From assembly GCA_008632985.1 (NCBI GenBank), contig QPGO01000006.1:310001-374000 (forward strand): a stretch of DNA of 64,000 nucleotides. Reading direction: 5' to 3'. Both the position numbers and the translations under genes were made by a program. Below the pieces are notes generated by a model. It had not been told where the DNA came from, did no database searches, and saw nothing but the letters and a program-made list of their open reading frames with translations. This stretch comes from Psammoneis japonica. Its lineage: Eukaryota. Shown here piece after piece: positions 6,441-64,000 of the stretch; position 1 is the first letter of the stretch, and every line of letters starts with the position of its first letter.

Positions 6441-6804
6441 AGTTGAGCTCCTGCCGTCGGCCTCTTTCTTCTCGGTCTGATCTGCTGGAGCGAGCCTGGA
6501 GACCGCAGAGGTGCGTGGTGCGTGCGTGCGTGCGTGGTCAAAAGCAGTGGCCGTCTGTCTGTACGTACGGAAGAATGTAGCGAAAAAAATGAGAACTCCG
6601 ATGTCAACAACAGGCACGACTACTGGCAACGACATGATCTCAATCGCGAAAGCTGTCAGCGACAGCAAGTCGTGACGATCAGCCCAAAAAGCGACGTTTC
6701 GGTGTAATCAACAGCAGATAGTAGAAGAGCGTTCTAAACAAAAGTCGAAAGTGTGTCGAAAACAAACAGTACCTCGAGGTGTGTGCAAAGACCTTGATAT
6801 AAGT

Positions 6805-8313
6805 ATGAAAAAGAATTTTGTCCTGGATACGAACGTGCTCTTGACGGATCCACTGGCCCTGAGCAAGTTTGGTGACAACAACATTGTCCTTCCCATTACA
6901 GTTATCGAAGAACTTGATAAATTCAAACGGGACTTGAGCGATTTAGGACGCAACGCACGAGAAGTAACTCGAACACTCGATCACTATCGAGAGACGGGGG
7001 GCAGTCTCTCCAAGGGTGTCAGGACTCAACAGGGAGGATTGTTGCGAGTGTGGACTGATTTGGGCAAGGAACCTCCACTTCCCTTTCCGACTCTGTGGAA
7101 GACGGGAGACAGTTTGATTTTGGCGTCCGCGTTGCTTTTGAAAAAACGAGAGGACCTGCCTGTGGTTTTTGTTTCTCGTGATATCAATCTCCGATTGCGA
7201 GCAGATGCGGTTGGATTAAAGGCCGAAAACTATGAGGAAGGTGAGACCAGATCTATTGAGGAATTGTATTCTGGTATTGTAAAAGTGGAGCTTGAAGACG
7301 AGGCAATCGAACTTTATGAAAAAGAACAAGTGTACCTTCCGCCCGAAACGAGCTCGCTTCAAGCAAACCAGTGCGTGGTGTTTCAAAGCAAGCAAAATCC
7401 AGACCAGAAACCTTTGTTGGGACGATACTTGTCAACATCCGAGGGTGTGAGGCCCATAATTAGTGAGCACGAGGAGTTGATGGGCATTCGAGCTCGAAAT
7501 ATGGAGCAGCGGTTTGCAATGGACATGCTGCTAGACGATGAGATCAAGATTGTCACATTGGCCGGGAAGGCTGGGACCGGCAAAACTCTTTTAGCGATTG
7601 CCGCGGGATTGCGAAAGGTTGTGCAAGAGCATGAATATTCCAAACTTGTCGTTGCTCGTCCGATAATGCCTTTGGGGAAGGAACTGGGTTTCCTACCTGG
7701 CGAGATTGGCGAAAAGCTACGACCATGGATGGAACCGGTTTTTGATAATCTTGAGTTCATCCTCAAGGTACATAATCATGTAAGCGACAGCGACGATGAG
7801 GATGAGCGGCCAAAGGGACGACAACGTAAAAGATCATCGGCAGATCAAGATGTCTTACAGAAAAATCTAGATCAAATCATGAATAAGCACCAGAAAAGCC
7901 GCAGCGAACACGATGAAAACGGACAGCAGAACCATCAGAAGCATTCACGAAGGCATCGAAAGAAGTATTCTGTCGACGGCGACATTGGGGAGATGCTTAG
8001 CAGTGGTATGCTTGAAGTTCAACCATTGACGTACGTGCGGGGGAGGAGCCTTCCTGGTCAATTTCTTATTATTGACGAGGCTCAAAACCTGACACACCAT
8101 GAAGTCAAAACGATTGTCACTCGTGCCGGAGAGGGCACCAAGGTTGTGTTGACTGGCGATCCGTACCAGATTGACAATCCCTTTCTCGATTCCGTTAGCT
8201 GTGGCCTTGCGATTGCTGTGGAGAAGCTCAAGGGTCAACCCCTGGCAGGACACATCACTCTAAACAAGGGAGAACGTTCCCAGTTGGCTGAAATGGCAAG
8301 CAATCTGTTGTAG
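6805..8313 (+). CDS. phoH: PIN-PhoH fusion protein (PhoH2/YlaK-type RNase-ATPase)
   Basis: PIN motifs FVLDTNVLL, VIEELDKFK, GDSLIL and SRDINLR. PhoH motifs GKAGTGKT, LGFLPG, RGRSL, IIDEAQN and GDPYQID. Intronless and intact; ATG at 6805. Confidence 0.95.
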   Translation: MKKNFVLDTNVLLTDPLALSKFGDNNIVLPITVIEELDKFKRDLSDLGRNAREVTRTLDHYRETGGSLSKGVRTQQGGLLRVWTDLGKEPPLPFPTLWKTGDSLILASALLLKKREDLPVVFVSRDINLRLRADAVGLKAENYEEGETRSIEELYSGIVKVELEDEAIELYEKEQVYLPPETSSLQANQCVVFQSKQNPDQKPLLGRYLSTSEGVRPIISEHEELMGIRARNMEQRFAMDMLLDDEIKIVTLAGKAGTGKTLLAIAAGLRKVVQEHEYSKLVVARPIMPLGKELGFLPGEIGEKLRPWMEPVFDNLEFILKVHNHVSDSDDEDERPKGRQRKRSSADQDVLQKNLDQIMNKHQKSRSEHDENGQQNHQKHSRRHRKKYSVDGDIGEMLSSGMLEVQPLTYVRGRSLPGQFLIIDEAQNLTHHEVKTIVTRAGEGTKVVLTGDPYQIDNPFLDSVSCGLAIAVEKLKGQPLAGHITLNKGERSQLAEMASNLL

Positions 8314-10002: not shown

Positions 10003-12342
10003 TCAGGCTTCCGGCTTATCTACCCAATCTCTGAGTTTCTTCTTTTTCAATTCACCCCAATGAAGCTCAAGCATTCGAGAGCTCGTTTTCACGTGATGCT
10101 CCACAGTAATCAACCCCATCTTGGGTTTGATGGGAGGATAAAACACAAAATCATCCTTTCGGCAAGTGACACCGTCACACTGTCGACTAAGCAGACCAAT
10201 GGATGTGTCTTCCCAGGGCAGATACGTGGTGTTGCTGATCTTGCTAGCAGCACACTTGACAAAGTTGCGAGACAAGGCAAATCCCAACCCCTGGGCATAT
10301 GGTGGGAACAACTTGTCCGGGTACATGACCTCGGGTGTATACCACTTGTAGGTAGTGTTTCGATTGGCAACTCGGAATTCCTCTTCTTCGAGACAATATC
10401 CCCAATATTCCGGTTTCCACTTTGAGAGGATGCGTGCAACCTCGGTAATCCCCACGTAACTGTCGTCGTCTGCTTTCATTGCGTAGTCATATGATTCGAC
10501 ATGAGTCTCAACCATGTGGAAGAAAAGTTGCGTTTTGTACGTCAACAAGAGGTATTCTTCGGGCATGTCAATCCACAAAATGTCACCATATCGGAAAAAC
10601 TCGTCTTGTATCTCCCTCCATGGCCCGCTGACAACAAAAAGCACCGAGTCGCGATAATCTTCTGCCCAAGTATTGCGAGCTGCAAACCTCCCCGCTCGTT
10701 GCGGTGCAGCGGACAATACTCCCACAACCACTACTGGCTCGTTCCGTTGGGATCGTTTTGGACAAGACGAGAAACTTGCGGGAAATCGATATCGCAGTTT
10801 CTTTCCTGAAATTACGACAGTGTCTTCTGTGATTTCGATTGGTGTTCGAGCTGCAACACTGGGCACAACTCTTTGATTTGCAATCACAGCTTCTTTCAAG
10901 AAAGCCTCCACAAAAAGTGTATTGGGATGATCGGGCAAGACGACAGACTGGGCAATTGCCAAGTTCTGTAACTTGGATTGAATCGTCTCGCTTGTAATAT
11001 TTTGCAACCCTGCAATCACGGACGCCGCGTCCTTGATAAAGGTCGCCTCCTTGACAAATATACAATAATCGTTCATCTTTAGACTTGATCGGAAAGGACT
11101 TGCGTACTCTTCCAAGTAGTCGCTCACAACCACTGGAATACATCCCGCTCGAATGGCAAACATCAAGGAATGAGAATGAGGTGTGTCGCCTCGAATCACC
11201 AGACAAAACTTGGACGACGCAAAGTGCTTGGCCCACTCGTCTGGTTTCAAATCGTTCCCAATACTAGAAGGCGGAAAGGAAGCCAATCTTTCTTTGTCGA
11301 GATGCAACAGAGCTTGTCTGAACGGCGTCGAGCCGTATCCAAATGATTTTTTGTCGTTGCTGTGATAAAAGACAAAGTAGTCGGACTGCTGAAACTTTGC
11401 CATGGTCGGTTCCTGAATTTCAAACTCGGCGCCAATGCCCAATCCAATCGAAAACGCCTTGGTCACAGGTCCGTCATGTGGAAACAAGTAGTTGAAACCT
11501 TTTTCGCTTGATTTTCTCGATGCCAAGTTCATGCTTGCAAACGCATCGTAATGAGTCGCAACCGTGACATTTTCAAGAATCTCGTAATTTCGTGATAGCG
11601 CCGGAATAGCACCAGCATACCGTTTGCTGAACGAATATTTACCAAAGGAAATCAAAACATGATTGTGTCCACATGTCCTTTGAAAAATCTCGTGCTGTCG
11701 GAGCTTTTCAAAGGCGTAATCGTACTTTTTGCAATCGTCCTCCTTGCATCCAGTGGCATAGAGTTCCGAAATTGGAGTCGGAACAATGTAGAGCTCCACC
11801 TCATTGGGGTCCCTCGTTCTGAGAGGGTGTTTCTCTAACGCATGCAGAGTCGCACGTTCGGATCGTATAGCATTTATTATAGTTTGGTCTTCAAAGGCGT
11901 ATTCAGCAAGCGATGATGATCCCTGAAGTCGCAAGACCCTGGCGACTAACTCTTGAGTGATGGAGTAGTCTTCGTAAATGTAGAATTTTGTGTTTACTCG
12001 TTCGAGCTCTTGCCTCACTAAATCATCGTCGTTGTTGTCTCGCCTCACTTGAGCCACGTGATTATTGGAGTTGCGGTCATCCAGCACTGTGATGGTGGTG
12101 AGAGATACTTCAGGTGAACCAGAGTGTGAAAACTCCGGTTGGAGGACAATCAGAGTAAACGAAGCAACCCATATTAAAGCTATGAATGACAAAACGACGC
12201 GATATTTACGACCCATTCGCAAATGGACCTTTGCTGGCATTGCGTTGACCGCCATGTCGAACGCAGTATTTTGTGAGAGTTGTTTTGCCGATCCCATGAG
12301 CGAGCGAGACCCAGACCAAAAAGCAAGCACACCAGCCCACAA
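10003..12342 (-). CDS. Exostosin (GT47) + galactosyltransferase (GT31) fusion glycosyltransferase
   Basis: TM anchor; exostosin motifs KFYIYED and SSKFCLVIRGD...AIRAGCIPV; GT31 motifs LTYKT, MKADDDSYV, PPYAQGLGFALS and EDTSIG. The true start may be a downstream ATG. Confidence 0.88.
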   Translation of the reverse strand: MWAGVLAFWSGSRSLMGSAKQLSQNTAFDMAVNAMPAKVHLRMGRKYRVVLSFIALIWVASFTLIVLQPEFSHSGSPEVSLTTITVLDDRNSNNHVAQVRRDNNDDDLVRQELERVNTKFYIYEDYSITQELVARVLRLQGSSSLAEYAFEDQTIINAIRSERATLHALEKHPLRTRDPNEVELYIVPTPISELYATGCKEDDCKKYDYAFEKLRQHEIFQRTCGHNHVLISFGKYSFSKRYAGAIPALSRNYEILENVTVATHYDAFASMNLASRKSSEKGFNYLFPHDGPVTKAFSIGLGIGAEFEIQEPTMAKFQQSDYFVFYHSNDKKSFGYGSTPFRQALLHLDKERLASFPPSSIGNDLKPDEWAKHFASSKFCLVIRGDTPHSHSLMFAIRAGCIPVVVSDYLEEYASPFRSSLKMNDYCIFVKEATFIKDAASVIAGLQNITSETIQSKLQNLAIAQSVVLPDHPNTLFVEAFLKEAVIANQRVVPSVAARTPIEITEDTVVISGKKLRYRFPASFSSCPKRSQRNEPVVVVGVLSAAPQRAGRFAARNTWAEDYRDSVLFVVSGPWREIQDEFFRYGDILWIDMPEEYLLLTYKTQLFFHMVETHVESYDYAMKADDDSYVGITEVARILSKWKPEYWGYCLEEEEFRVANRNTTYKWYTPEVMYPDKLFPPYAQGLGFALSRNFVKCAASKISNTTYLPWEDTSIGLLSRQCDGVTCRKDDFVFYPPIKPKMGLITVEHHVKTSSRMLELHWGELKKKKLRDWVDKPEA

Positions 12343-14063: not shown

Positions 14064-15304
14064 GTCACAGAGTATCGGTTTGTCGTTCCATGGGCTGCAA
14101 AGCGGTGCATTTCCCTCGATTTCGTCGGCTAATTGGGTTCCGCAACGGGCGATCGATCAATTTTCAAATTTTGATTTGTCGATGCATGACCCAACGGCCG
14201 CCCGCAACGGACGGGCGCGCGACACAGTCAGGACGTGCGAACGCCGGCTAGAGTCTACGTGGATATTTCTATGCGCAAATTTTTCCCAAGACAATCGTCG
14301 TCAACTTCAACTTCGATGTGCCGATCTAATTGAAAAGGATGGTCCGCTTCGCGTCGGGCTTCGGCGCCTTTCATGAACGACGTCAGCTATGAAATTTACT
14401 CTTCACATTAAGTAAAGATGACATCATCCTTACCCCACCATCTATTCGGCCCGTGCGTCGCCGCCGCCGAGCAACTTCAAAAATTGTCAAGTCCCCAAGA
14501 GCCAAGAGACGTGAAAAAAGACAACACACTGTGTACGCAAACAGCACGAACCGCCCATGACAGCGGCAACTTTCGGACTGGTGAGCATAAAAATAACACC
14601 ATTAGAACCGCAGCATTCTTGTTAGTATGTGTTCGTTGTTTCTCTTTTTGTTCAATGCAAGTCCGACACTCTTAAGGGATAATTTCTTCAACTTTCAAGT
14701 AGAAAGTTTTGCACCGTCCTTCTCGGGCCATTTAGTCCACCTATACTAAAATCATTTAGCTTACATATAACACCGTTCAATCCGCTATATCTAAATTACT
14801 CTCTATGGTAGTTTCTGTGTCATAGAGATCTAGTTTAGGGACCTTATGCATGGCCATCTGCGATGCAAGAAAAGACCTGAAAAATTCTTTCAATACAACA
14901 GGTCCATTTTGGAAAGAAGTACGCAAAGCGTTACCATTTCCTTCTCGACACGTATCATAACTACTTCATATTATCGATTGATGCTACTTCTACAGTCATA
15001 AAGTAGAGAGAAGTTGTCCAAAACAACCACACACCGCCATGGCGACTTGCACAAAAACAATTCTATGTACGCGCGGCTTCAGTAGAAGTACTTGACGTGA
15101 TGCGTCTGATACAGTGTACAGTACTGTACGTACCGTACTGTAGGTAGATTGCGTGCGTGCGGCTACCGTACCGGTAGTAGCTGGGGGGGCAATAATGATG
15201 TCAACATTACTTATTGTGAACAACAAAGTTTTTAGCTGACGTCGTTTGTCCAATCAGATTTCCATACCGCCGTTATGACCGCACTTACCATACCGCGGAT
15301 ACGT

Positions 15305-17085
15305 TTTCTGGCCTTTCTCCTTCCATGTTGCTCATGACGCCGCCATCGGCGATCGTCGCCATCAGACACCATCAGCAGCACTGGCATTCACAGCATTTTC
15401 TTGTGTTGTGAGGTTCATCAGCTCCTGTGGTGGTTTCAAAAGGCGGAAGGCGAGGAGGCGACAACTCTGTGTGAGGCGAGATGTGCTGTGAGCGAGGAGA
15501 GAGGAGGAGAGTCCCAGCTCCAAGCAAGGAGAATTCACAAGAACACATGAACCAACAAGTGTTTGCAACAACACAGGAGTGCTTGCTGGTGCCTCAACTG
15601 ACGAGATGATGCCAAACATGTCCCTGAGCACTGCCGCAGCTGGAGAGCAGAGAGCACACCTCAAAGCCAAAAAATGAGAGACAAGAAGCCACAGCACATC
15701 ATCTGTTGCTGTTTCCAATCATGATGGGAGCAATCAGCTGAAAAAGACTCACAATTCCTGTGAATTGTGTGACTTGTTTTGTGGCTCTTCTTTCAGTGCC
15801 ACAACGCCACAGCGCCACAATGCAGACCTTTGCTGTGCCAAGTCACACAGCGCTGGTGACACAACAAGTGGGAAAACCAAAAACAATGGCACTCCCCCCC
15901 CACTGATGGTGGTTGCATCAAGCCTTGCAACCCATCATTTCAAAAAGCAAAACTGTGTGTCATTCCATCATTTGTCTTTGGCTGCCTGCTCCATCACTCG
16001 CACAGCTTTTGGTGGGCCAAAAAACAGTGCACAGCACCACACAGAAGCTGTTCTTTCCTCTGCCTGAAAAAAAGAGTGGCACACAGCATGCTTGTTCTGC
16101 CAAGCCTGGAAGTCATGCCTGACTTTCAAAGCATGCCAGAGCCTCTGTCCAGCCAAACTGTTCAGCTCAAAGTGTTGCAGCAGGCGGTTGTTGTCGATTT
16201 TCAAAAAAGCTGCAGGAGTGGCTGCCAATTGTGAGTGCAAGAACAAAGATGGAAATTTGTGGGTTTGGAGACATTGGCACTCCCTGAGAAAGGAAGTGCT
16301 GTCACCACTTCAGGGTCAACAGGTGAGATTTGTCATGCTCAAAGCACTCCTCTTTGTGTTTGCTGCCCCTTGCTGCCTCCAAATTGATGTTCATTTGGGG
16401 TCAACATGCTTGCTGCATCTGCCTTTCTTGTGAGAGGAAAGGAAGGCCAATCCCTTCAAAGAGATTGCCAGCGGAGGATGCAAAGGGAGCCAATGCCTGT
16501 TTTGCCACCATGATTTTGATCTCTGGATGCCTGGACTGTGCTCTGCAGAACTGACCCTGGTGGTGCATGCCGGCCATCTGCGTGCTTTTTTTCTTGTTGA
16601 TGTGGAACCTCCGATCTCAAAAACATGTGAGATGTTTGCACAGAGATGCTTTGCCATGCACAGTTGAGAATCCTCTAATGCCCATGCATTGCAACCAGTG
16701 CACCAATGCTCTTTTCCTTGCCACCTGCTGGCAAGAATTCAACAGGGCTGCATGTCTCAGCGGTCAGTTTGGGGCAACATTGCCAAGCCATGTGGCGGCA
16801 TTTGGTGTGCCAAGTTTCTGCAGGGCCACATTGGGATCACTGGTGCCTTGACCCAATTGCATGTGAGAGAAAATGCTGTGCCATTGCTGGTTGTGGTGGT
16901 GTTTTTGTTCGTTGTGACAAGGGAAGACTCCACCCTTCTTGACAAACGTCTGTCCAGTGGCATGTTGACGTCGTTCGTGGGGGGCGCGGTGCACAGTTTC
17001 GTTGTCGGCACGCCTGAAGGATGAGTGACGGCGTCATTCAAGGAGCAATGACCATTGAAGCCATTGTGCATGACAGTTGTTCTTC
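15305..17085. other. TA-depleted island B (degenerate repeat or TE-like DNA)
   Basis: One TA seen (about 16676) in 1.78 kb. CG is rare in the core but frequent at both edges. Confidence 0.8.
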
Positions 17086-17199
17086 TGTAACTAGCGTTGA
17101 GACAAAGACTAAGAACACCATAGAGTAGTAGGTTACAGGTTATCACTTGCAGACATTAAAGGTCGTGGCGGTTTTACGTTCAGCATGCATGGGTTTTGC

Positions 17200-18884: not shown

Positions 18885-18950
18885 CTTACTCGTACTCTCT
18901 CTTACTCTCTAGAGCTAATTGAGTAGATACTGTCTCTAGAGAGGAGTACC
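18885..18950. repeat. CTAG/CTCT-rich tract at the edge of island C
   Basis: TACTCTCTCTTACTCTCTAGAGCTAATTGAGTAGATACTGTCTCTAGAGAG. Confidence 0.6.
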
Positions 18951-18979
18951 CATCACGCCTGCTGTGTACCCATGACATG

Positions 18980-20470
18980 TGGCATCCGACCCAACAACGG
19001 TCGCTCTGAAAATGTGAGGAGGAGCGCAGAAGGCCCACAATGCATTGTGCCAGTGTGGCGTGTTTTGAGATGTTTCACAATCACGAGCGTCACTCGGAAA
19101 CTCTTTTGCCTTGCTGAGGATGCCGACGGCTTTTGTGCTGATCCGAGTCTTGGCAAAGTGTCGCATCTTTTTCGAGACCGACGAGCTCTCAGAACAAGGT
19201 GTGCAACCCACACTTGGTGGGCAGAAACTCGAGTAGAATGATTTGGATTGATGGTTTTGCCTGAGTGAGCAGGTTGATGCCACGACCCCACGACCCCACT
19301 GGTGTTGCAACTCCAACGTCGATGATGAGGTGCAGATTCCGATGCATGGTGTGATTCATGGGCAAATCATTGTCGTCACGTGTGGTTGGCGCCATTGTGA
19401 AGTTGTTTTGAATCTAAAGAGACTCCATGTGACATGAGACTTAAAACTCTTTTTCTCTGCATTGTGCAAAAGATCGTTTCTTGTTCTTGACGGTGTGCAG
19501 GCTCAAGCCAGGTCGCTGCCAAACGGATTCGTTGTTGCTTCACCAAGACTGCAGAGATCGAGTTTGTGTCTTTGAAGTTGCTGTGGGGGCGGCAGTGGCA
19601 CTGTCACAGCAAACAAAAAGACGAAACAAAAATCCAAACAAGATGATGACAACGGTTGCGCCATGGGCGACAGGCCCCAGTGTGGCAAAGATGGCTGCGG
19701 GTGTGACAATGGCAGCATCGGTTGTTTCCAGCAAGCGCCCAATCGATGATGAATCCTTTGAGTGGATGTGCACTGCGCAGTTTGGCAAGTGACATGAATC
19801 CCAGCATGGCTGCAAGTGAAGTCATGTCACCCTCCATGTCGTCCATTGGTGGCATGCAACAGTCACCCTGTCGACAATCATCGTTGTTTCGCATGGCGGC
19901 TCTTGCGAGATGGCAACAACGACTGCAAGAAGAAGAATCATCATCATCATCAGAAGAAGAAGAAGACATGTCTTTTTCCATTGATCACATGGCGGAGCAT
20001 TGTGATTTGCACACGATGACGACCCATTGGAATGGACAAAAATCCATCAATTGTCATCGTCAAGAGCACGCAGCATGCCACAATCCAAAGAAACCTTGTG
20101 GTTGCATCTGTGTCTCTAGAGAGTAGAGTGCGAGCAGTCATGTGGTCGGAAGCTCAGCATCGCTCCGGCCCACCACCGTCGTAAATGTAGAACACATCAC
20201 ATCAACCACAAACACTGCAGAATTCAAAAGACAATCAGTTCCAAACAAGCATTGTGTGCATACAGAGTAGGTGTCGTTCGCAGCATCATTTTGACGAGTT
20301 CTTTCCATTCCGACGCAGCTAAATTTCCCCAAAAGCAGAATTCAAATGTCACGTGCAGGATTGCTTTTTTGTGTTGTCTCACGACAGGTTCCCACATTGG
20401 TGAGGCCGCCACGCACATGTGGACCACAGCGTTTATTTCGGCCAGAACCTTTTTGAGCTCAACAAAACTT
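18980..20470. pseudogene. TA-depleted island C, containing a decayed gene-like sequence (about 19640-20120, + strand)
   Basis: Few TA but many CG. Tyr-free frames such as RWQQRLQEEESSSSSEEEEDMSFSIDHMAEHCDLHTM. Confidence 0.55.
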
Positions 20471-26555: not shown

Positions 26556-28887
26556 CTATTCATCTTCACCGTAGCTTGGCGCTTTACGTGACTTGGGAGA
26601 GTTATCCTTTGTAGTAGTAGTACCCTTTGCTTGTTGCGCCAGCTGCTTGAGTTCAGGAGGCTTATCCACCCATTCGAGTAGCTTTTGCTTTTTCATTTGA
26701 TCCCAATGAATCCAAAGCATGGATCCACGCAATCCAACGTTATGCTGCACGGTCGTGAGGCCCATTATCATTATCAAATTCGTCACGTTGACATTCGAAT
26801 CCACACTTGCTGTCGTGGGAAAGAATCCCAATCGCCGCGTCTTCCCACGGCATGTACTTGGCCGTGGCCACATGGGGTAAAATGCATTGCACGTGCTTGC
26901 GACTCAGTGCATAGCCCATTCCCTGGGCGTACACGGGATACTTGTCCTTGGAGTACATGGCCTTGGGTGTGTACCAATAACTCTCCTCGTTTCGTTGCAC
27001 CGTCAATCGTTTTTCGTCCAAATTACAAATACCCCAATAGTGTGGCTGATGCTTGGAGAGAATGCGTGAAATTTCGGGTATACCCACATAACTATCATCG
27101 TCCGCCTTGAAGACATAATCATAATGATCATCCACCAACATCGTCTCGACGGCGTGTAAAAAGACAAGAGTCTTGTACGTGAGCAAGAGATAATCTTCTT
27201 GAATGTCAATCCACACCAAATCTCCAAAATTGTAAAATTCTCTTGAATGTCTTCCCAAAATCCACCCACCAAAAAGAAAACACGATGGTGTTTTTGTTGT
27301 GCTGCTGCCCACGTGTTGCGAATGTTAAATCGTGGATCCGGTTTGGATGCATCCGAGAGAATACCAAAGACAATGACGGGTTTATCGTCGCCGTCATTGT
27401 TGTTTGGATTGCCAAGTGGATATCGGTAACGGAGTGTTTTGCCCGAAATGATTGTTTGGTTTTCACCCATTTCCACCGGCACTCGTTGCTCGACTTGTGG
27501 AACCATCCTCTTGTTGGCCTCCAGAGCTTCCTTGACAAAGGCTTGTACAAAGAGTGATTTGTGGTGATCGGGCAAGACAATGGATTGAACCACATCAAGA
27601 TTGTGCAACAACACTTTAATCTCATCGTCTGGTACATTTTGTAGTTGGAGTAGCGCCTCTTTTGGCTTGGCAATGAAATCGGATTCCTTAATGAATATAC
27701 AAAAGTCCTTCATTTGAATACTCGACTGAAAGGGACCGGCATAATCTTGGTAATGGTCGCTAATCACAACGGGTATACATCCCGCTCGTACCGCATAGAG
27801 GAGCGAGTGAGAATGCGGCGTGTCTCCCCGAATCACGAGACAAAACCTGGGACGAAACAAAGTGCTCAATCCATTCGTCTCGTTCCATCTCCATACCAAT
27901 ACTGGATTTTGGAAAGTTTTCCATTTGGATGTCAAACGGAGCCTTGCGAAAGGGTGTCGAACCGTACCCAAACGGATCCCACGTGGCATTGCGGCTGTGA
28001 TAGAATACAAAATAATTGGAAGCTTTGAATTTGTCCAGCGTTGGTGTTTGGATTGCAAAGGGTGCATCCACACCCAAACCAATCGAAAAGGCCTTGGTGA
28101 CGGGCAATTCTTCCGGAAACAAATAGTTGAATCCCTTTTCTGTGGAATTGGTCTTTTGCTGTTTTATGAGTTTCAAACACCCAAACGCATCATAGTGACT
28201 GGCTACCGTGACATTTTCCAATACACGATAATTCCGTGATAGAGCCGGAACGTAGGCTGCAAACCGTGGATTAAAGGAAAACCATCCATACGAAACAAGC
28301 ACATGATTGTGTCCCTCTTGATACAGTGCATGTTTGCGCAAAGCCTCGACGGCTTGATCGAAATCATGACAATCCTCCCAACGACATCCCTGTGCCACCA
28401 TTTCGGAAATCAACCACGGAATAATGTAGAGACGTGCCTCGTGGGGATTGCGTGTGCGAAGATTATGTCGTTCTAGAGCTTGCAACGTATCACGTTCGGC
28501 TTGTAAATCTTTTTCCAAATGATCCAAGCCTTCCGCATCGGGTGAAATGGGTGTCTTGACGGATCGTTTGATATTGAGAATGAGTTTGCGTGAAATGGCG
28601 TGATCTTCGTAAATGTAAAATTTGGTTTGAATGTTCTTGAGAGCGTCCGTGTTGATTATGGATCTTGTGGTTGTTTGTAATTTTCGGCGTTGTTGCAGTG
28701 TCGGAGTGGCAACAGAGACTGCTTGAGGTCGTTGTTGTTGTGACGATTTGTTGTTGTATGGAAGAAGCACCGAAACAGACAACATGGCTACAAGGACACA
28801 TGAGACAACTGCCTTTGTTTGCCAAGAGTATTGATTATTAGGATGCGTCGTCATTTTTGTGCTTGACGTCGACCGTCGCGTCGCCAT
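26556..28887 (-). CDS. Second GT47 + GT31 fusion glycosyltransferase, frameshifted
   Basis: Collinear with 10003-12342 (KFYIYED, EKGFNYLFP, FCLVIRGDTPHSHSL, KADDDSYVGI, MGLTTVQH, WVDKP). Split over four ORFs; likely start MATRRS at 28887. Confidence 0.85.
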
Positions 28888-53049: not shown

Positions 53050-54990
53050 CAAGAGAGATTGGAGATCTCAAAGAAGTGGCCAGACAATGGGGGGGGCATC
53101 TGGACAGCTGCTGTCAAAAGAATCTTGCTGTCGATCAGTGCGTCCAGCAAAATGCGTTTTCCGCACAACACCAGCATTTTCCGAGAGTTGCACCATTCTC
53201 TTTGTGCATTGGAGGAACAACATTTTACACTTTGTGAGGCATTGATGCTGAAAGCACAAATGATTGAACAACACAAAAAGAGAGATCTTGATTGCAAAAA
53301 CCACTTGACACAAGCAACTTGTTGTTCTCACTGGGATCCAGATGATGCTTTGTTTTTTGATCACCAAGGGGTGCAGATGGCATGGCAAATGGTGGTGGGG
53401 TTGGTGAAATTGGGTCATTTTTCAGGATGCTGGAAAGTTTGTTGGGCAACAAACTGATCTGCAAGGGATCAGTTGACAGCATGGATGATGTTCTGAAGAC
53501 TGCACTGGGAGGGAGCAATGGAGTGGCAAGTGTGGCACCACAAAGCAACAACTTTTTGTTGGGGAAGAAGAGATTGTCATTTCTGAATGGCCAAAGCCAA
53601 AGGAAGCAGGCAGTGGGGAAAGGTTGTCACAAACAAGAAGGCATCAAAGGCATTGAAAGGTGTGTTGAAAAGAGGAAGCAGAAATCCATGGCAGAGAAAG
53701 AGAGGTTTTGGCAAAAAAGCAGATTTTGAGGTGCCAAAGAGAGCAGGAGAAGGTGGTGGGCAAAGCAATGCATTGGGGCTGGAAACCAGGTGATCAATGA
53801 CAGTGCTGAAAATGGGGCAGTGCAAATCTCTCTGTGGTTGAGCCATGACCTGCTTTGTGGCTGACATTGTGAAATTTCCTTTGGTGCTTCCCATGGTCGT
53901 GTTCCCAGGCTGAGGAGTTTGCAGGGGAGTGAAGCAGTGGACAGCACCAGCTTGAGTCAGATGCTGACATCTGTGTGGCACACTCAAGTCTCAAGTGGCA
54001 GCTGCAGCAGAAGGTTTGCAAGTCTCCGCAGCGGTGGTGGGCTGCAACCGCATCTTGGTGCAAAAATCAGAGAGAGTGGCCAGCAGTCAGGGGGGCACAA
54101 AGAGAAGGCCATCTTGCAAAGAGCAAAGAGTTGGAAAGGGTGGTTTTGCAATTTGATTTCTGTGCAAGTCCTCAGCAGCACATTGTTGTGAGATGGGCAA
54201 AGCGTGGGATTGGGCTGATGCATGAGAAAACTGGTGGTCTTGCAGCTTGTTGTGCCACACTGCAGCACAAATGGTTGAAAGAGGATGTGGACAGAATGCC
54301 TTGTCATGTGACCCCCTGGGCAGCACTTTTGCACTCCGTCTCAAGCCCCTTGGTGCTCCACCCTGGTGGCTGCTCAAGTGCATGCACATGAAAAATCATG
54401 ATCACAGCTCCCTGCCAAAAAGCTGTCTGCTTGACAGCGTCAAACATTGTTGGGAGCCTTTTGGCATCACAAAGCACCTGCACCCAAAAGACATGCATGC
54501 AACAACAGCAGCAGGCAAAGCAGGAGCGCGGCTCATTTGCATGCTTTGGTGGCTCTTGTGGAGCTGCTCCAGAGATTGGAGCGATGGCCATCATCATCAT
54601 GAGGTGGAAATTGGGCGCCAATCCAGGCGGTCATTTTTGTTGTCGTGCAGGGTTGTGGGCACCCACTTCTTGAGAAAATGACGAGCAAGGCACACAATTT
54701 TTTGACACCAACACACATTTGAGATGGCCGCACATGGGCGCCATTTGCCTGGTGCTAGAGCAGGAATCAGGTCTCCTTCGAGCACCCAAGGCAAGCTTGC
54801 ACATGGCGATGACTGACCAGCCATCTCCAGAGCACTTGTGGGAAGGGTGCATTCATTGCAGCCGCTGCAACACAGCACTCACTGTTTGGTGCCACAGCAA
54901 TGCCTCGTGGTGTGTTGTGGCTGACTCGTGAGAAATCAACATTGTCAACACACAAAAAGTGGGTGGCGGCCAATGGCCCAAATCGGGTGA
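53050..54990. other. TA/CG-depleted island E (degenerate repeat or TE-like DNA)
   Basis: About two TA seen in 1.9 kb (about 53226 and 54756); dense Tyr-free Cys/His ORFs in all frames. Confidence 0.8.
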
Positions 54991-56304: not shown

Positions 56305-57048
56305 CTACCACTTCGTCACTCGAGTCTCTGCGGAGATAAGATGAGAAGACACGACACGCATAGCATTCCGCATTGTGTGCCCCGCGTAAGTGAGAGACTT
56401 GGACGACAACAAGAATGCAAATCACAATAGAATAGAAACTATCACCCACTCGTAGCACATACCTTGTGGAAGTCGATCTCGCAAATAGTACAGCTTCGCT
56501 CGCTTAATTTTCTTTTTACCTTTGTGTACGAAATTCTCCTCCAGCACCTTGAGAGACTTCAAGAGCGGCGAGTGCAGAGGTATTTTGCGTTCAATGGTTT
56601 CTCCAAACACAACGTCCCGCAGAATCACAGAAGATCCCAAGCCACGATTAACTCGTCCCAAGACAACACCACGAATCTTTTCGATATCCTTTCCATTCAC
56701 ACCGCCTGTAGCAACCATTTCAATCTCAATCGCATCACCCACCCGAAAGGGCACCTTGAGGACGGACGGATTCTTTTCTGTAGATTCGAGAACCGATTCT
56801 TGGTTGAGAGTTGCAAATAGTTTCGAAGCGCGTTTGCGAGGCGACTTGAACTTGGGTGAGGGATATCGAGGGCGTTTCCCGTGATGAAAGTACGGCATGT
56901 CTCGAGGAGCGACACCGCCGGGAGGAGAAGTGCTGGTTGAAGTCGTGCTACTCATGCTAGCAGCGTTCACGGTACTACATGTATGGCCCTTCATGAGGGA
57001 TCTCCATGGCCTTGTGATTGTTCCCATGGATAAGGTGGGACGCAACAT
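56305..57048 (-). CDS. rplS: Organellar (probably mitochondrial) ribosomal protein L19/bL19
   Basis: PFRVGDAIEI...RGVVLG...GLGSS..LR....GETIER..PLHSP...KRAKLYYLRD. Intron 56462-56328 (GTATGT..CAG) gives the C-terminus ETRVTKW. N-terminal presequence-like extension. Confidence 0.93.
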
Positions 57049-60000
57049 GGCTACGATGCAGTTTTAAGGACTCCTCCCTTTCACCTCGCTTATGACATTG
57101 CTTTGTTATGGATGGTGCGTGATGTCGCTCCAACTTCGATGGTGGCTGGGTGCGTGTGCGTTTCGCGTGCGTCCGTGAGCTCGCTCGCTTTATCCCGTGT
57201 GCTTGTGCTTGGCTCTGTGCTGGTTTTCATGGCCAACGTTGGAATGTGCAAGAAGTTGAGGTGGTCACCTTGGGAGTGGGGGTCTTCATGAGTGGTGAAG
57301 TCAGGGACATGGTGAAAAATCTTTGGCAGATGTCATCCATCTTGGAGGACACGCCGGCGGTGCTGAACTGTTGGGCCTGACAACGAGTGCACCAGCCAGA
57401 AAATGTCTCACTGAGCCAGCAGCCAATGAGCATGATTGTGAGTGCCAGGACATTGGCCAGGCACATGGCCATTGCCAAGCTGGGTCAGAAAGAGTGAGCT
57501 CTGATGTCAAGGCAGGCTTGCACCCAGCTTTGCCAACATGTTCTGCCATGGTGCAAAGATGCACAAGCACTGTGCCTTGGACTTGAGATCGCAGAGACCT
57601 TGGAGTTTCGGCATGTGGCTGGCACCACCAGGGTGTGACAAGATGTGATGAAAAGTGGCAGCCCAAGTTTTGAAGGGGCACATCAGTGAGCCATGCATGT
57701 GGTGTGCTGGGTTGCAGTCACACCCCGCTTGTTGTTGTTCTTCTCTGAAAGATGGGGCAACAGAAATGCCATCTGCCACACCAGGTGCAGCCCAGTGCCA
57801 TCATGTGTGTGTGGCAATTCAGCTCATTGCCCACAAAAGAAGTGCAAACTGGCAAGGGCAAGAAGTTTCATGTGGCATTTCTTGCCAGACACTTTGGAGC
57901 ATTTGTGAGAGGACACATCAAAGAAAAAGGCTCTCGAGCAAAAGCTTGCCTCTCAAGCCTCACACACAGTGGGTGGGGTGTGATTGCCTTCAGTGTGCAA
58001 CCTTTGAGTTGTCATTGCAGAAACTGGCAAAGCTTGCCTTGCTCATTGTGGGTGGAGGTCAAGGGTGGTGGTGAGCTCTGCAGGTCTCAGCTGCAGCATC
58101 GATGGTTGCACGAGCTGTGCCAGCAAGATGCTGGCACTGAGGCTGACTTTGCACCCACACAGCACTGGGTGGCATTGGCTCAATTGGCAGATGCAAAGGC
58201 CTCAAGGATGTGTGCTGTTTGTCACACAGTTTGAGGCCTTTGAGGAAAGGGTCATTGCTGACTTTTTGATCTGACAAGCAAAAAACCAAGTGCAGCCACT
58301 CCAGAAGTGTTCTCTGCACCAGCCTGGACAAAGCCCCTGTGCCCCATGAAAAGGAGATCCCAGACAGAGCAAACACCATGGCAAAGTCTGGCTGAACTGC
58401 CAAAGGCCTTGATGGTGGTTGGAGAGTCAGCACCTGCAGTGCAGCCCCAGCCTGGCACCACTCCCACTGGCGAGCCATCAGTGTGGCAGAGGCAGGAGCT
58501 CAGCAGCAACATGGTGGTGGGCACTGCACCCTGAGCACCATCATGGCCACTCATGGCCAAAATGGTGGTGGCATTCTTGCCCTCTGGGTTGAACAGAGCC
58601 CTCAAATCTGTGCAAAGCTGATGAACAAGTTGAGCGATGTTTCAAATGAATGTTTTGAATTTGTCCCAGCAGGTGCATTAGAATTTCTCAGATTTTGGCA
58701 CCAGACACCACAGATCATTCACCCCTCAGACATGCTGTTGGCATGCCCAACAAAGCACCCAAACTGCAAACGTGCACAAATCATTTTAAGCTCTTGCAAC
58801 AACAGCAGGTGAAAAGTGCGTGGTTGGTTTGAAAACTTCCAATCATTCTGGAGCTGCTCTGGAAATTGCAGAGTGATGGTGTCATGCTGCCATGCCAGTT
58901 TGGTGTCTTTCTTTTGGGCATGACTCACACAATCGTGTTCAGAAAGGCCCTGGGCTGCTGATGGGTGGTGTGGAAAGCACAAAAAAAGAGTGGTTGTTTG
59001 TGGCTGGTGGCATTGATCAGGCTTTGTCGTGCATGCTCTTGGTGGACTGCAGTGTGCACGTGCACACGTGCGTGACACATGCACAGGGAGGCAGCTGCAT
59101 GGACTGACCAATGGACCGCAGCGCCAGATTTTTTGATTTTACGATTGTGCTGCAATGATGACACTCTCTTCTTTGTGTCATGGGTTTTGTTTTCTCACAT
59201 CATGTGCGTCATTGTCTTGCAAATGAGTTGTTGGCGGTGATGTTGCTGTTGTCCAACACATCATGACAGCATGAACGCATGCACTGAATGTTTGTCATGG
59301 AAGTTGAGAAGCCCCCTGATGCTGCTGCTGCAGCCGCCCCTGCTCCAGCAGTGCCTGATGCTGCTCCAGCTCTGGCTGCGGTGCCTGCAGCTGCAGCAGG
59401 TCCCACTCCAAACCCTGTGGCAGCAGCCCCCGCAGCCACAACCCCACCTGCGCATGCACCAGCTCCTTCTGTCAATCTGGTCCAGGTGGCTCCCACTCCT
59501 GCCGTTCCAGCCCCTGGTGCCCCCACCCCGGTTGCACCAGCTCCTGCTGTTGCTGCTCCAGTCTCTCCAATGCCCACCCCCAAGAACCCAACAAGAGCAC
59601 CAGCTCTGCATCTCAACTGTGACCCCATCATGCAGCAACACAAGAAAACAGAGAAGTTCCTCCACATGAGGAGCAAACCTGTTCACTCCTTTGGCTGAAG
59701 GGCGTGCATTTCCATTCTTGTGATTCCATTTGGACCATCAACAATGAGGATTTTTTTGCAAGCAATTTCACTTTTTGGATGCCATCCAATGTCAAGGACG
59801 TCTTGGAAATGTGGATCCAGTGGCCAACTTTGCAGATGGGTTTCCAGCTGTGCAAAGGATCATCTGCTCTGGTGACAGCAGGACAACCATGTAAATTTTC
59901 AGAGGGATGTCTTTGGCCAAATGCACCCAGAACTGGCACATTTAGTCTCTCACATGCCCACTGCTTGTGCCACATGCACAGGGTGTTGGCAGAAGCCGCC

Positions 60001-61595
60001 ACCATGGGAGTTGGGATGAGCACACCATTGCAGCAAGCAGAGCTGGTGAGAGGGACAAAACAATGTGGCCAAGAGAAGAGAAGTGGTCTTTGGCACAGTC
60101 CATGCAACCTTTTGCTGTTGTCTCAACAGGGCAATTTTTTTTACAACCTCCCCCACATGATGGTCATTCCCTGCATTTGTCTTCAATTTGTTCTCAATTG
60201 GACACCCCCAGGCAAGCGCATGATTGCATGTTTGTCACAGGTGGTCCCGCCGTTGACGGTGAAGGTGATGCCAAACCAATCAATTCCTGCAGCACTTTGC
60301 CAGGGAGGATCCATCTGCATCACAACAAACAAGAAGCTGCTGATGCAACAAACTTGCTTGCCATGTTTGTTCGTGCTGCAACATGTTGCACTGGGAATGA
60401 ACAAAGTCTCTCTCTGTCTTTTTGATCATGTCACAAATCAGGCTGAAAGTTCCAGGTTTTGAAATCTTTTTGCAAACCCCATCTGCATGGAATTCTGGTT
60501 CCATTGATGAGGACGGGCATCAACTTTCAAAATCAATGACTTGCAAAGCTTGGCTTTCCAATTTAAGACACAGACACAACCACATGCCAGACCCACTTTT
60601 GTTGGTCATCAAGGCCATGGTTTCCTTTTTTGCTGGCCAGAATTGCAAGCTCATGCCACGTGTGTGTTGTCCTTCACACTTTGATGACACCAGTGAAGAA
60701 AACAAGGACAGGGACTCAGTTTCTCTGGAGTCAGAAGAGGAGGGCTTGGGGATTGATCATGTCAGCCATTCTCCTGTTTTGATTTGTTTCATGGAGGCCA
60801 AAGCTGGTGTAGCTTGAAGGCAGGCATTGCACGCCTGAGTGAGACTTCCTGCATTCTAACTCTTGGAAGAGTCCTGAAAGTGAAACTCTGCCAGTTAGAA
60901 GACACATGGCTCTGTTGGCCAGCCATCTCCATTGTTCATTGTTCCAGGAAATTTTTGCATTCTGGTGAGTCAGGAAGTGGCTGCATTGTGTTTCAGATGG
61001 TGGCCAATGACACTTCCACTCTGCTCATCTCTGCCGGCACTCTGCTGTGGTTGCCGCAGCTCTCTGGCTGCTGGCTGCTGCTCTGGCTAGAGCATGAACA
61101 GAGAGTGGAGAGCAGAGAGAGATTTTTCTCTGTCACACACAGCACTTCTGATTGACCAATGGATGGACGGGACCAGCACCAGATTGTTGATGTCATGATG
61201 ATGTAAGACAGACATGGGCACATTGTTTCGACAGAAAATGGAAATCTTTGCGGCGCCAACCAACATTCAACAGTGTCGTTCAACACACGATGCATGCACG
61301 CACCGGCAAATGCCAACACCTTCAATGAAGGACTGCTGAGAAACATGAATGAGCAAGAGCATGTGCAAAAGCCATGATGATCTTTTGTTTTGCACTCCTT
61401 CTTGCAGTTGCTGTCAGCAGCTCTGTTGAGGTGTTCAGTCCTGTGCAACCCAATGTGGTCCGCAGAACAAAAAGCATCAACAAGCTTTGGTCTGACCGAG
61501 GCGGAAGTTCCCACAGAAGCCATGTTTGCAAGGGGCAACTGTGTGTTTTGGCTTTTTGGTGCTTTGGGGGGTGCTGGAATTGCCTGAAGTGCACT

Positions 61596-61637
61596 GCCCG
61601 CCCAGTTCCAACGTCACCTTGAGTTTCAGAGTCTCAA
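61596..61637 (+). repeat. 42-bp direct repeat, copy 1
   Basis: GCCCGCCCAGTTCCAACGTCACCTTGAGTTTCAGAGTCTCAA, identical to 63959-64000. Confidence 0.95.
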
Positions 61638-61689
61638 AGAAGAGGGGCCCACCAAGGGGGGCAAAAAACTCGGCTCACCAACGGCCTTT

Positions 61690-62154
61690 TTGGGTCATCC
61701 CCAAGATGTCTGCATTGCCAATGTGGAGCAAATTGTCAACAATAAATTGACAGTCAAGCAAATGGTTGACAAGTTCTCCATGGAAGGCATTCACCTGGCT
61801 TTCAAAGGACATCTCAACTTGATGGCGTTTCAGCAAGCAAACAAGGATGATGCGATTTTTTACAGTTTTGCTCAAACTGCCAACAATGTTGGCCCAACAG
61901 TTGCTCAAGAGAAGATCAATGTCCTCAAGACTGGGAACTTGGGAGTTTTGAAATCTGACTTGATTTTTTGCAAGGCAAAACAGTTCTTGGCTTTGTTTTT
62001 GCTTTTGTTCTTGTTGGGTGTTGCGGACATCATTGCGTTTTCCGACGTCTACAAAGGATGGTTTCCTGACTGGCCTGGTGGATTGAATTTCCCCATTGGC
62101 ATGTTTGCGGAACCCAATGGCAGCCCATTCAGTGTTCCTGACTGCTGGATCTAA
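61690..62154 (+). pseudogene. 5'-truncated, mutated fragment of a host-like membrane protein gene
   Basis: Protein-like frame with no ATG start, a TM helix, and the C-terminus YKGWFPDWPGGLNFP...PDCWI-stop. Resembles an uncharacterised algal protein tail (recollection, not searched). Confidence 0.55.
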
Positions 62155-62211
62155 TGATCACAGAACAAATGTCATTTCGCCAAATGCAAAGTCCCAACCT
62201 GTCGATGACAC

Positions 62212-63003
62212 TTGATTCATCCACGGGGGGCAGCACTGACAAAGAAGCAGCACATGGACGATGCCGACCGCAAGCAGGCCAAAGTCGAACCCGGCTGCTG
62301 CTCACTGGATGATGACTCTGTTGTCATTGCTCTTGAAAAAACACCTGACTTTTCTCTGACGTCCACGCTTGGCCTTGAGCATGTTGCCGACCCAGCGAAA
62401 ATCGGTCGCTCTGTTGCTGTCCCTGCTAACGGCAACTGTGGGTGCCACGCTGTGCTGAAGGGACTGGAGGAGGCTAGCTCAATCAAAAAAGGCACTTGCA
62501 ACAAGGACATGACTGGTTTCCGAAAACACATGCATGGTTTTGCTGCACAGAACTTTGAGGGCTTGTGCGGTTGGCCCTTGGATGATGGTGCAGGTGAGGA
62601 CAGAGGTCTCTTGGCGGCTGCGTGCGATGGGAAAGTCATCGGGGAATTTGTTGTCGACAAGAGGAATGAGCACAATGCTGGTGCAAGCCGGAAAGATCGA
62701 TTTCTAAAACTGCTTGCTTGCATCTGGAAGACTGGGATTGACTTCAATTCTGGTTGTGGCAAAGGTTGTTGGTGTGATGCGAGTGCATGCAGCACCATTG
62801 TCGCTCTCAAGTGTGAGCAATTGATTGTCTGCCATGGAATGGGAAGCAACAAAAACACGTCCATGTGCCATCATTCCAATGGAAAAGTGCAGCTGTTGTT
62901 TGTAAGAGACACTTGGCTCTCTCCTCCGGCCAATTCCATCACCACAACCCACGACGGCGGCGGCCATTTTGAACACTTAAGTCCAGCAAGTGCAAAAGGA
63001 AAG
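62212..63003 (+). pseudogene. OTU-like cysteine protease remnant (TE-associated type)
   Basis: VPANGNCGCHAV matches the OTU Cys box (V.gDGNC.yhA). W-x-D helix region and HDGGGHFEHL His box. No Tyr in about 265 aa. Confidence 0.65.
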
Positions 63004-63958
63004 GCATGTTGTTGTGTGCTTGGCCAGAGTCATTTTCATTTTAAAAAAAGCAACCTCACAATTTACTCCCATTGTGCTTGCTTGCATCATTGGGACATTC
63101 TCGACTCCGGCCGTGAAGGATGTGGTTCCTGCCATTGCCACCAAAGCGAGCACCGAAGCTGACAACAATGAAAAGGCAGCGGTAAGTTTTGAGGTGTGCC
63201 ACAGTTCGTCATGCAGTGCAAGGCAATCCAACCATGTCATGTGCGAAATGAGTGCAGATTCAGCAGCAAGACTCGTTCCATTGCCGCAACAACTGAGCCA
63301 GCCTGCCGTCTCGGACTTGGGACTCACTCAGCATTCCATCCAAGCACCTTTTGGGACATTCGGCATTCCGTGGGAATGGAAGGCGGTCAAGGTTTCATTT
63401 CTGGTGGCCCGTCTGTCCGCCTGTCGGTTTTCGTGTCTCAAAGCCACAGAAAAATTGAAAATTTGGGTCGCGCGCATCACTCATCACAAACCGCACATGC
63501 CAATGGCGTCACTTTGGAGTCCTCATTTCGCGTCAACCACAGATTGAACCATGGGTGCACCATCTCCTGCTTCCACATTGTGGAGGACGAACAAGTTGCC
63601 GATTGATTTGGCCATTGGAGCCATTCGAAACATTGCCTCAAAGCTTCATCACCAGAAGACCACACTTCAAACTGATGCCGATGGCAGTGCCGGCAGCGAC
63701 ATCATGAGTGTCGACATTGTGCCCCCTCGACAGCAATTAAAAGTGGCTCTGGACGCCAATCTCATTGGCAACAGGCATCTTGGAGATCGCTCTCCATTTG
63801 ATCCCGATCAAGCCGTCATGCACATCGCCGAGGCGTTGTCCAGCATTCACGTTGATGTGGCAATTTTCGCCAATCATCCAACGGAACGCCATCCGTCAAA
63901 ACAAGCAACTTGCAAGTGAAGGGCTGACGCAGCAAAGGCTGGTGTACAACTGACAATG

Positions 63959-64000
63959 GCCCGCCCAGTTCCAACGTCACCTTGAGTTTCAGAGTCTCAA
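63959..64000 (+). repeat. 42-bp direct repeat, copy 2 (truncated by the window end)
   Basis: Identical to 61596-61637. Confidence 0.95.

Follow-up and report, generated by a model that had tools for sequence, protein, structure and literature searches.

The 64,000-nucleotide stretch of contig QPGO01000006.1 of Psammoneis japonica analysed here, called the window in the following, ends in an island of DNA that nearly lacks the dinucleotide TA and carries an open reading frame predicted to encode a divergent cysteine protease of the OTU fold. An earlier note on this DNA had described positions 62212–63003 as about 265 codons without Tyr and rich in Cys and His, and had read in them a Cys box, NGNCGCHAV, and a His box, HDGGGHFEHL. 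The forward-strand translation of this segment agrees with that description: it has 264 residues, with no stops, no Tyr, 15 Cys, and 13 His (Cys and His together 10.6%), and contains both boxes. The segment is part of a longer frame, the codons of which number the residues below. The features of the locus are:

57192–64000: island poor in TA and CG and rich in TG and CA, at least 6.8 kb long, containing the OTU gene and running past the end of the window
62209–63162, forward strand: OTU-like frame from stop to stop, longer than the segment flagged at first; 317 codons, first ATG at 62254
62356–62994, forward strand: predicted OTU-fold domain, frame residues 50–262; core with pLDDT >90, top structural matches all OTU
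62428–62454, forward strand: Cys box NGNCGCHAV, placed by the family alignment; codon of the presumed catalytic Cys77 at 62437–62439
62950–62979, forward strand: His box HDGGGHFEHL, placed by the family alignment; codon of the presumed catalytic His253 at 62965–62967, with Glu255 two residues on

The frame 62209–63162 has no internal stops, compared with nine and 17 in the other two forward frames. No other frame of the island is as long, and chance would provide 0.09 frames of such length there. In six host genes of the window, Tyr makes up 3.28% (123 of 3755 codons), Cys 1.12%, and His 3.14% (Cys and His together 4.3%), and 22 homologs of the frame contain 3.7% Tyr and 5.7% Cys plus His. At the host Tyr frequency, the chance of finding no Tyr in 264 codons is about 1.5e-4. 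Positions 62212–63003 include five TA dinucleotides in 792 bases, with rho values of 0.11 for TA, 0.60 for CG, 1.72 for TG, and 1.45 for CA; five host genes of the window have rho values of 0.42–0.60 for TA and 0.91–1.12 for CG. Since Tyr codons (TAY) and the stops TAA and TAG all require TA, the absence of Tyr and the openness of the frame both follow from the lack of this dinucleotide and are not separate observations.

Relatives of the frame were identified by a phmmer search of 1.84 billion representative proteins with a cut at E ≤1e-3. The search gave 23 matches, the best at 1.7e-25, 22 of which were judged credible; P0023, a repetitive Ig/cadherin-like protein, was dropped as a spurious match. 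The relatives come from marine metagenomes in ENA, Logan, and JGI, and two are from MMETSP protist transcriptomes. Blocks common to them and the query are GDGNCG[YF].A, FR..L, IW..G.DF..GC, ALKY..FV.Y, W.SPP, and H.G.NH[YF][DE]YL. When 48 family proteins were compared with the window by tblastn, 46 matched one locus only, 62224–63012, in a single high-scoring segment pair without a frameshift, and the C- and N-terminal modules of the longer relatives had no counterpart in the window.

The motifs that define OTU proteases are a Cys box with the catalytic Cys and a His box in which the catalytic His is followed by an acidic residue. N74-G-N-C77-G and H253-F-E255 of the query align with DGNCG and NH[YF][DE] of the relatives, and Cys77, His253, and Glu255, which we take to be the catalytic residues, are all present. 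Position 74 is Asn instead of Asp, as it is in P0016 and P0021. A profile built from the query and its 22 relatives (A1) matched two otubain-like chains in the PDB (9.9e-6 and 3.8e-5) and the OTU of the nairovirus Taggert virus (6dx3_A, 2.1e-4), the latter with both boxes aligned. AlphaFold2 with the family alignment produced the model of residues 50–262, and a Foldseek search of the PDB with this model gave nine matches at E ≤1e-3, all of them OTU domains. After VIA re-alignment, all 50 rows shown were OTU domains, with Z of 12.7–8.3, root-mean-square deviations of 2.9–4.6, and 109–153 aligned residues. The highest Z belonged to the Wolbachia OTU 6w9o (12.7), followed by yeast Otu2 7pl7 (11.6) and nairovirus vOTUs (11.4).

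The assignment to the OTU fold has to be weighed against several contrary results. Pfam recognised no family in the query at E ≤10, and its OTU model, PF02338, matched none of 29 relatives. P0021 and P0045 matched PF10275 (otubain) at E = 0.0018 with 18.2 bits, which is below the 24.3-bit cut-off. A Pfam match is an operational criterion, and it does not define the OTU fold. With the query frame alone, a word-index homolog search was empty, and so was a PDB sequence search at E ≤10. A narrower profile, A2, made from 12 relatives without the query, found no OTU chain in the PDB at E ≤1, so that the support at the sequence level comes from the broad alignment that contains the query. The structure model was driven by the family alignment and speaks for the fold of the family, not for the folding of this copy. 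The OTU match proposed in the earlier note nevertheless agrees with the fold (Z 12.7) and with both motifs, despite the silence of the Pfam OTU model. Based on fold and motifs, 62209–63162 is predicted to encode a member of a divergent OTU-fold family that lies outside the Pfam model.

The family alignment records the direction in which the sequence has changed. We used the 105 alignment columns that have at least ten homolog residues and a plurality residue at ≥40%. Tyr is the plurality residue in eight of them, in which the query reads, in order, C, H, C, H, H, L, F, and H:

62443–62445, forward strand: Cys79 (TGC), inside the Cys box; among 16 relatives, Tyr in eight and Phe in five
62533–62535, forward strand: His109 (CAT), Tyr-plurality column; Tyr in 8 of 17 relatives
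62812–62814, forward strand: Cys202 (TGT), where relatives read ALK-Y; Tyr in 13 of 21
62833–62835, forward strand: His209 (CAT), the most conserved Tyr column; Tyr in 19 of 20
62872–62874, forward strand: His222 (CAT), Tyr column; Tyr in 17 of 19
residue 230: Leu (TTG); Tyr in 8 of 19 relatives
residue 254: Phe (TTT); Tyr in 12 of 18 relatives and Phe in the rest
62974–62976, forward strand: His256 (CAC), inside the His box; Tyr in 13 of 18 relatives

The query agrees with the consensus in 62 of the 97 non-Tyr columns and in none of the eight Tyr columns (p=5.2e-4), which makes 62 of 105 in all. At the Tyr columns, it has Cys or His in six of eight places, compared with 9 of 146 homolog cells (p=7.5e-6), so the homologs do not share these residues. 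Tyr is the ancestral residue at these columns. The earlier note had proposed that GYHA was converted to GCHA and YDG..HFEYL to HDG..HFEHL. The relatives have GNCG-Y-HA where the query has GNCG-C-HA (TGC), and NHY-E/D-Y-L where it has GHF-E-H-L (CAC), as expected from the proposal. The F of HFE, which is Phe254, is not a product of TA changing to TG or CA, and its column contains Tyr in 12 and Phe in six relatives. Leu230 does not have such an origin either, and these two residues count against TA loss as the source of the Tyr replacements.

Departures from the consensus outside the Tyr columns follow the same logic. There are two changes of Leu to Pro (CCA from CTA), one of Ile to Met (ATG), and one of Ile to Thr (ACA), the last two both from ATA. 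Changes of the CG-loss type are Ser to Leu (TTG from TCG) and Arg to His (CAC from CGC). The classes predicted from in-codon loss of TA or CG comprise 15 of the 43 departures of the query but only 44 of 785 departures of the homologs, taken in a leave-one-out baseline with each homolog in turn as the query (p=3.5e-8). For the TA-loss classes only, the counts are 13 of 43 and 24 of 785 (p=4.5e-9). Twelve of the 15 predicted-type changes are also compatible with the codon present in the query, whereas three are incompatible (GCG, AGC, and ACC) and argue the other way. The DNA of one homolog, L001, a single 1666-bp metagenome contig from a related-locus search with the narrower alignment A2, has ordinary dinucleotide frequencies (rho 0.5–0.69 for TA and 1.1 for CG). 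The change of TAY to TGY or CAY in a once-normal gene, put forward in the earlier note, is supported by the homolog columns, among which those of Tyr, Ile, and Leu fit it, and by the composition of L001.

The MMETSP transcript P0003, the nearest relative over the C-terminal half, reads FVCC where others read FV.Y, which places Cys at the most conserved Tyr column, and has His at another Tyr column. With two Cys or His in seven Tyr-column cells, it shares the homolog maximum with P0019. P0003 may be a partly mutated yet transcribed copy in another protist.

The frame could alternatively encode a working, lineage-specific OTU protease in which the enrichment in Cys and His is functional, for example in metal binding, and in which no mutation bias was at work. 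Such an enzyme would be expected to have what is seen here: an open frame of 317 codons, the catalytic Cys, His, and Glu, and no frameshift relative to 46 relatives. However, TA loss makes no stops, because the change from TA to TG or CA does not turn any sense codon into a stop, either within a codon or across codons; this is why the frame remains open despite the loss of Tyr. From the code table, the only loss of TA or CG that creates a stop is CGA to TGA. An open frame is thus expected without selection, and an intact frame within the island is no evidence of it. Furthermore, the Ile, Leu, Ser, and Arg columns follow the same substitution logic as the Tyr columns, and the bias covers at least 6.8 kb of surrounding DNA. 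We therefore consider a working protease without mutation bias to be extremely unlikely.

In the seven consecutive 1-kb windows of the OTU island (57001–64000), the rho values are 0.03–0.12 for TA, 0.11–0.76 for CG, 1.45–1.95 for TG, and 1.47–1.91 for CA. Stops make up 2.6% of the codons in all six frames of 57192–64000, and frames of 150–280 codons are present on both strands. The many long frames result from the removal of stops by TA loss and will lead gene finders to predict too many genes in islands of this kind. The window contains four other islands:

1–2004: island cut at the start of the window
15301–17088: complete island
18968–20117: complete island
53227–54756: complete island

Altogether, rho of TA is ≤0.12 in 13 of the 64 one-kilobase windows, in which that of CG is 0.04–0.76 (median 0.27) and those of TG and CA are 1.45–2.05. 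The edges at 15300/15301, 17088, 53226/53227, and 57191/57192 are sharp to approximately 10–20 bp. At the left edge of the OTU island, the last TA is at 57191 and the last dense CG at 57196; up to 15300, there is a TA every 5–20 bp, and then none for 1376 bp. At these edges, the density of TA drops to zero for more than 1 kb, so that whatever confines the process keeps to the limits of one discrete segment. The within-window comparison found no sequence common to different islands.

In most TA-free 1-kb windows (1–2004, 15301–17088, 53227–54756, and 57192–62000), rho of CG is 0.04–0.35, compared with about 1 in host DNA. In 62001–64000 and 19001–20000, TA is gone, while CG is only mildly low (0.59–0.76). 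The losses of TA and CG are therefore separable, and they may differ in rate or agent. The island 18968–20117 (1.1 kb) is flanked by a 16-nt direct repeat, 18931–18946 and 20111–20126, the copies of which are identical in 15 of 16 positions and keep their own TAs. By our estimate, chance alone would give approximately 0.03 such pairs in this region of 2.1 kb. The arrangement resembles a mutated insertion flanked by a target-site duplication of host DNA that has escaped mutation. Neither terminal inverted repeats nor convincing flanking repeats were found for 15301–17088 and 53227–54756.

The island 57192–64000 contains 756 TG and 731 CA dinucleotides, which are equal in number and randomly interleaved. 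A runs test on the five islands gave z between −1.5 and +0.4 and detected no strand-coordinated patches of TG or CA. It follows that both strands were hit, site by site. This bears on the possibility that the changes arose at the RNA level, by A-to-I editing of a double-stranded transcript by an ADAR-like enzyme, followed by reverse transcription and insertion. The 5′-U preference of ADAR, as given in the main text of a preprint on Bigelowiella natans (10.64898/2026.01.13.699255), fits the TpA context, and a 42-bp direct repeat around the OTU gene, with a spacing of 2363 bp, could start a long terminal repeat. However, hits on both strands at the grain of single sites speak against a single-stranded RNA or cDNA intermediate, and editing of adenosine leaves the loss of CpG unexplained. 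Pfam detected no reverse transcriptase among the island's frames of ≥110 aa, and the chromosomal DNA of B. natans acquires this signature in place, according to the main text of the preprint (10.64898/2026.01.13.699255). Editing at the RNA level is, in our judgement, very improbable. The exact copies of the 42-bp repeat, which may be part of a tandem unit or of a terminal repeat, lie on either side of the OTU gene:

61596–61637, forward strand: first copy, with a sharp left edge
63959–64000, forward strand: second copy, cut by the end of the window

Diverged copies of the OTU gene are present in contigs of sequencing run X1, the sole run with this DNA; no RNA run was among the runs containing it. 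Seventy-one X1 contigs align to 57000–64000, of which 21 are ≥99% alike, 12 are 95–99% alike, 21 are 90–95% alike, and 17 are <90% alike. The 50 contigs that are less than 99% alike concentrate on the OTU part, where the summed depth is 250–438, compared with 57 elsewhere. Because the diverged contigs stack up there, the OTU gene is multi-copy in the X1 sample. The window and the X1 contigs differ at 168 places, and 127 of the differences are transitions. Among the 40 of these places that were listed, ten make up five adjacent TG/CA doublets (57871/2, 62328/9, 62767/8, 62786/7, and 63091/2), and 14 of the remaining 30 are single steps among TA, CG, TG, and CA. Doublets with TG in one copy and CA in the other are the expected result when a single ancestral TA (or CG) is resolved independently in each. 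The window retains TA at 59141 and 62428, where other contigs read TG, so TA loss was ongoing after the copies had separated.

These copies help to assess whether the composition was acquired by selection in a donor. An element such as a virus could have been poor in TA and CG before its integration, owing to a TA-reading nuclease or to RNases that cleave at UA, and its OTU protein could have adapted to Cys and His in place of Tyr. A donor history would not require mutation triggered by repeats, and the islands indeed share no sequence; it would also fit the intact frame, the retained catalytic residues, and the ordinary overall divergence from the consensus. Nevertheless, Tyr is replaced in columns that are 85–95% conserved (19/20 and 17/19), which functional selection would protect, and TA is lacking to the same degree in the non-coding flanks and in all six frames. 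The TG/CA doublets and the TA/TG singles (for example 59141 and 62428) among the X1 copies place TA loss after the split of the copies, and a search of viral_contigs with the narrower alignment A2 found no relative. Selection in a donor is thus an unlikely source of the composition.

We consider it highly probable that the locus contains a copy of a multi-copy OTU-fold gene in a segment nearly saturated by TpA transitions, with additional partial decay of CpG. The frame 62209–63162 would be one copy of a gene whose product is a divergent cysteine protease of the OTU fold, from a family that occurs in marine protists. Changes of A to G on either strand at TpA, carried close to saturation, would have yielded TpG or CpA throughout a discrete segment, in which CpG would also have partly decayed to TpG or CpA. 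Within the frame, TAY (Tyr) would have become TGY (Cys) or CAY (His), ATA would have become ATG or ACA, CTA would have become CCA, and every TAA and TAG would have been destroyed. The agent is probably a host-directed TpA hypermutation of foreign DNA such as that in B. natans, possibly based on adenine deamination. It would have acted in place, after insertion, and the OTU copy may no longer be functional. The idea of the earlier note that the islands are mutated descendants of normal coding DNA gains support from the homolog columns and codons of the OTU gene.

Not all observations favour this interpretation. The query lacks the most conserved tyrosines of its family even though its overall divergence is ordinary: it departs from the consensus in 43 of 105 columns (41%), which equals the homolog mean (785/1926). 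With this divergence and the intact Cys77, His253, and Glu255, a loss of function is no more than a possibility. X1 is possibly the source sample of the window itself, so the comparison of copies is not independent. The CpG depletion is the part of the signature without precedent, since the word CpG has no occurrences in the main text of the B. natans preprint. We infer a foreign origin of the island, in which no viral or transposable-element hallmark was found. The other 24 frames of ≥110 aa in the OTU island had no Pfam matches, and no viral or transposable-element domain was found beside the OTU gene, which lends no support to its carriage by a known class of transposable element. An Atlas search with the frame 61588–62151, upstream of the OTU gene, gave no usable match. 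The BFVD matches were generic OTU domains, and Atlas gave a weak match to a giant-virus cluster (score 0.91, 167 shared features), 19% of whose members carry an OTU.

A broader scheme appears to us possible rather than probable. A TpA-directed, deamination-like defence may exist outside Bigelowiella and be saturated on discrete insertions with edges sharp to ~10–20 bp, with CpG loss coupled to it, so that all pyrimidine–purine steps (YpR) end as TG or CA. A single enzyme might attack both the A of TpA and the C of CpG. No stops would be made, and long open frames would remain, from which Tyr-free proteins rich in Cys and His are possibly still translated.

The window is eukaryote-like, and the DNA between the islands contains ordinary genes. 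Pfam searches with the 150 frames of ≥110 aa in the window recognised host genes only, and no island frame was matched. The host genes, in long single frames, encode a short-chain dehydrogenase, a PhoH+PIN protein, GT47+galactosyltransferase proteins, an S28 peptidase, a kinase, MYND and SET proteins, a sulfotransferase, a DUF2252 protein, and ribosomal protein bL19. The GT47+galactosyltransferase genes at 10395–11670 and 27028–28314 are paralogs with 67–70% identity, and the inverted pair 4062–4522 and 14587–15049 (466 bp, 72% identity) is a diverged duplication. The nearest named relatives of the PhoH+PIN gene (6676–8310) are bacterial, from Sumerlaeota and others, at 55–61%, and four unnamed relatives are at 75–78%; judged from these similarities, the gene may have been acquired from bacteria.

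Hypermutation of foreign DNA at TpA has so far been reported from one marine alga, in one preprint of 2026, and its enzyme is not known. The second, apparently unrelated genome shows the signature at saturation, with a record of direction at the protein level and with co-occurring CpG loss, which suggests that the process is more widespread than B. natans. It also offers a simple test, namely whether a copy aligned with its family has Cys or His in conserved Tyr columns. Such islands can conceal recognisable genes: the OTU gene was missed by Pfam and was recovered by an exhaustive sequence search and structure prediction. Reading frames are spared, unlike in the repeat-induced point mutation (RIP) of fungi, which matters for the annotation of long open reading frames in islands.

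Compared with known OTU deubiquitinases (nairovirus vOTU, Wolbachia OTU, yeast Otu2, OTUD3, and otubains), the modelled query has the same fold, with 131–153 residues aligned for the top structures, and the same Cys box [DN]GNC-G and His box H-x-[DE]. However, it has 10–19% identity to them and is not detected by PF02338. Its family differs in having the blocks IW..G.DF..GC, ALKY..FV.Y, and W.SPP of its own, and several members carry an unannotated C-terminal module.

Two known processes produce partly similar DNA. CpG decay of methylated repeats resembles most of the islands in the low rho of CG (0.04–0.35) and the excess of TG and CA, but it is unable to remove TA, which is nearly gone from the OTU part at a CG rho of 0.6. 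The RIP of fungi converts CpA to TpA (PMC2621366). Like the process considered here, it leaves dense transitions in discrete segments that are probably foreign or repeated, and it can be recognised by dinucleotide indices. Its direction is opposite: RIP enriches TA and makes stops, whereas in the islands TA has been lost and the frames remain open. The islands of the window are not repeats of each other. The high TpA/ApT index that fungal RIP would give is not seen, the islands having a 10- to 30-fold depletion of TA and an enrichment of CA.

The closest precedent is that of B. natans, in which Mettrop et al. (bioRxiv 2026, 10.64898/2026.01.13.699255) followed one integrated region of a nucleocytoplasmic large DNA virus (NCLDV) and one of a virophage in mutation-accumulation lines. 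According to the main text of the preprint, the mutation rate of these regions is approximately 1000 times that of the remaining genome, 230 of 231 mutations are A to G or T to C, all at TpA, and the authors suggest that the agent is an ADAT2-like deaminase. Affected clusters are defined there by a rho of at most 0.43 for TpA and of at least 1.52 for CpA+TpG in three or more windows, and the island 57192–64000 lies within these thresholds. In both cases, TpA is converted to TpG or CpA on both strands, 1-kb windows that are locally low in TpA and high in CpA+TpG form clusters, and most targets are unannotatable. They differ in degree, as the island is near saturation with a TA rho of 0.03–0.12, while the hypermutable NCLDV region of B. 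natans has a rho of 0.45. The B. natans regions belong to an NCLDV and a virophage, and the island yielded no recognisable viral gene. The main text of the preprint mentions neither tyrosine nor OTU; the direction of change was read there from mutation-accumulation lines and here from a protein family. A literature search, supplementary tables aside, returned no report of the TpA signature other than this preprint. In a collection of 5.8 billion proteins that includes NCBI and JGI, the best matches of two long host frames reached 78% and 51% identity, and the only match to a named organism was Thalassiosira oceanica at 30%. The long host genes without introns also do not fit the intron-rich genome of B. 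natans. TpA hypermutation has thus been described before, and the island with the OTU gene is a further example of it, apparently in an organism other than B. natans.

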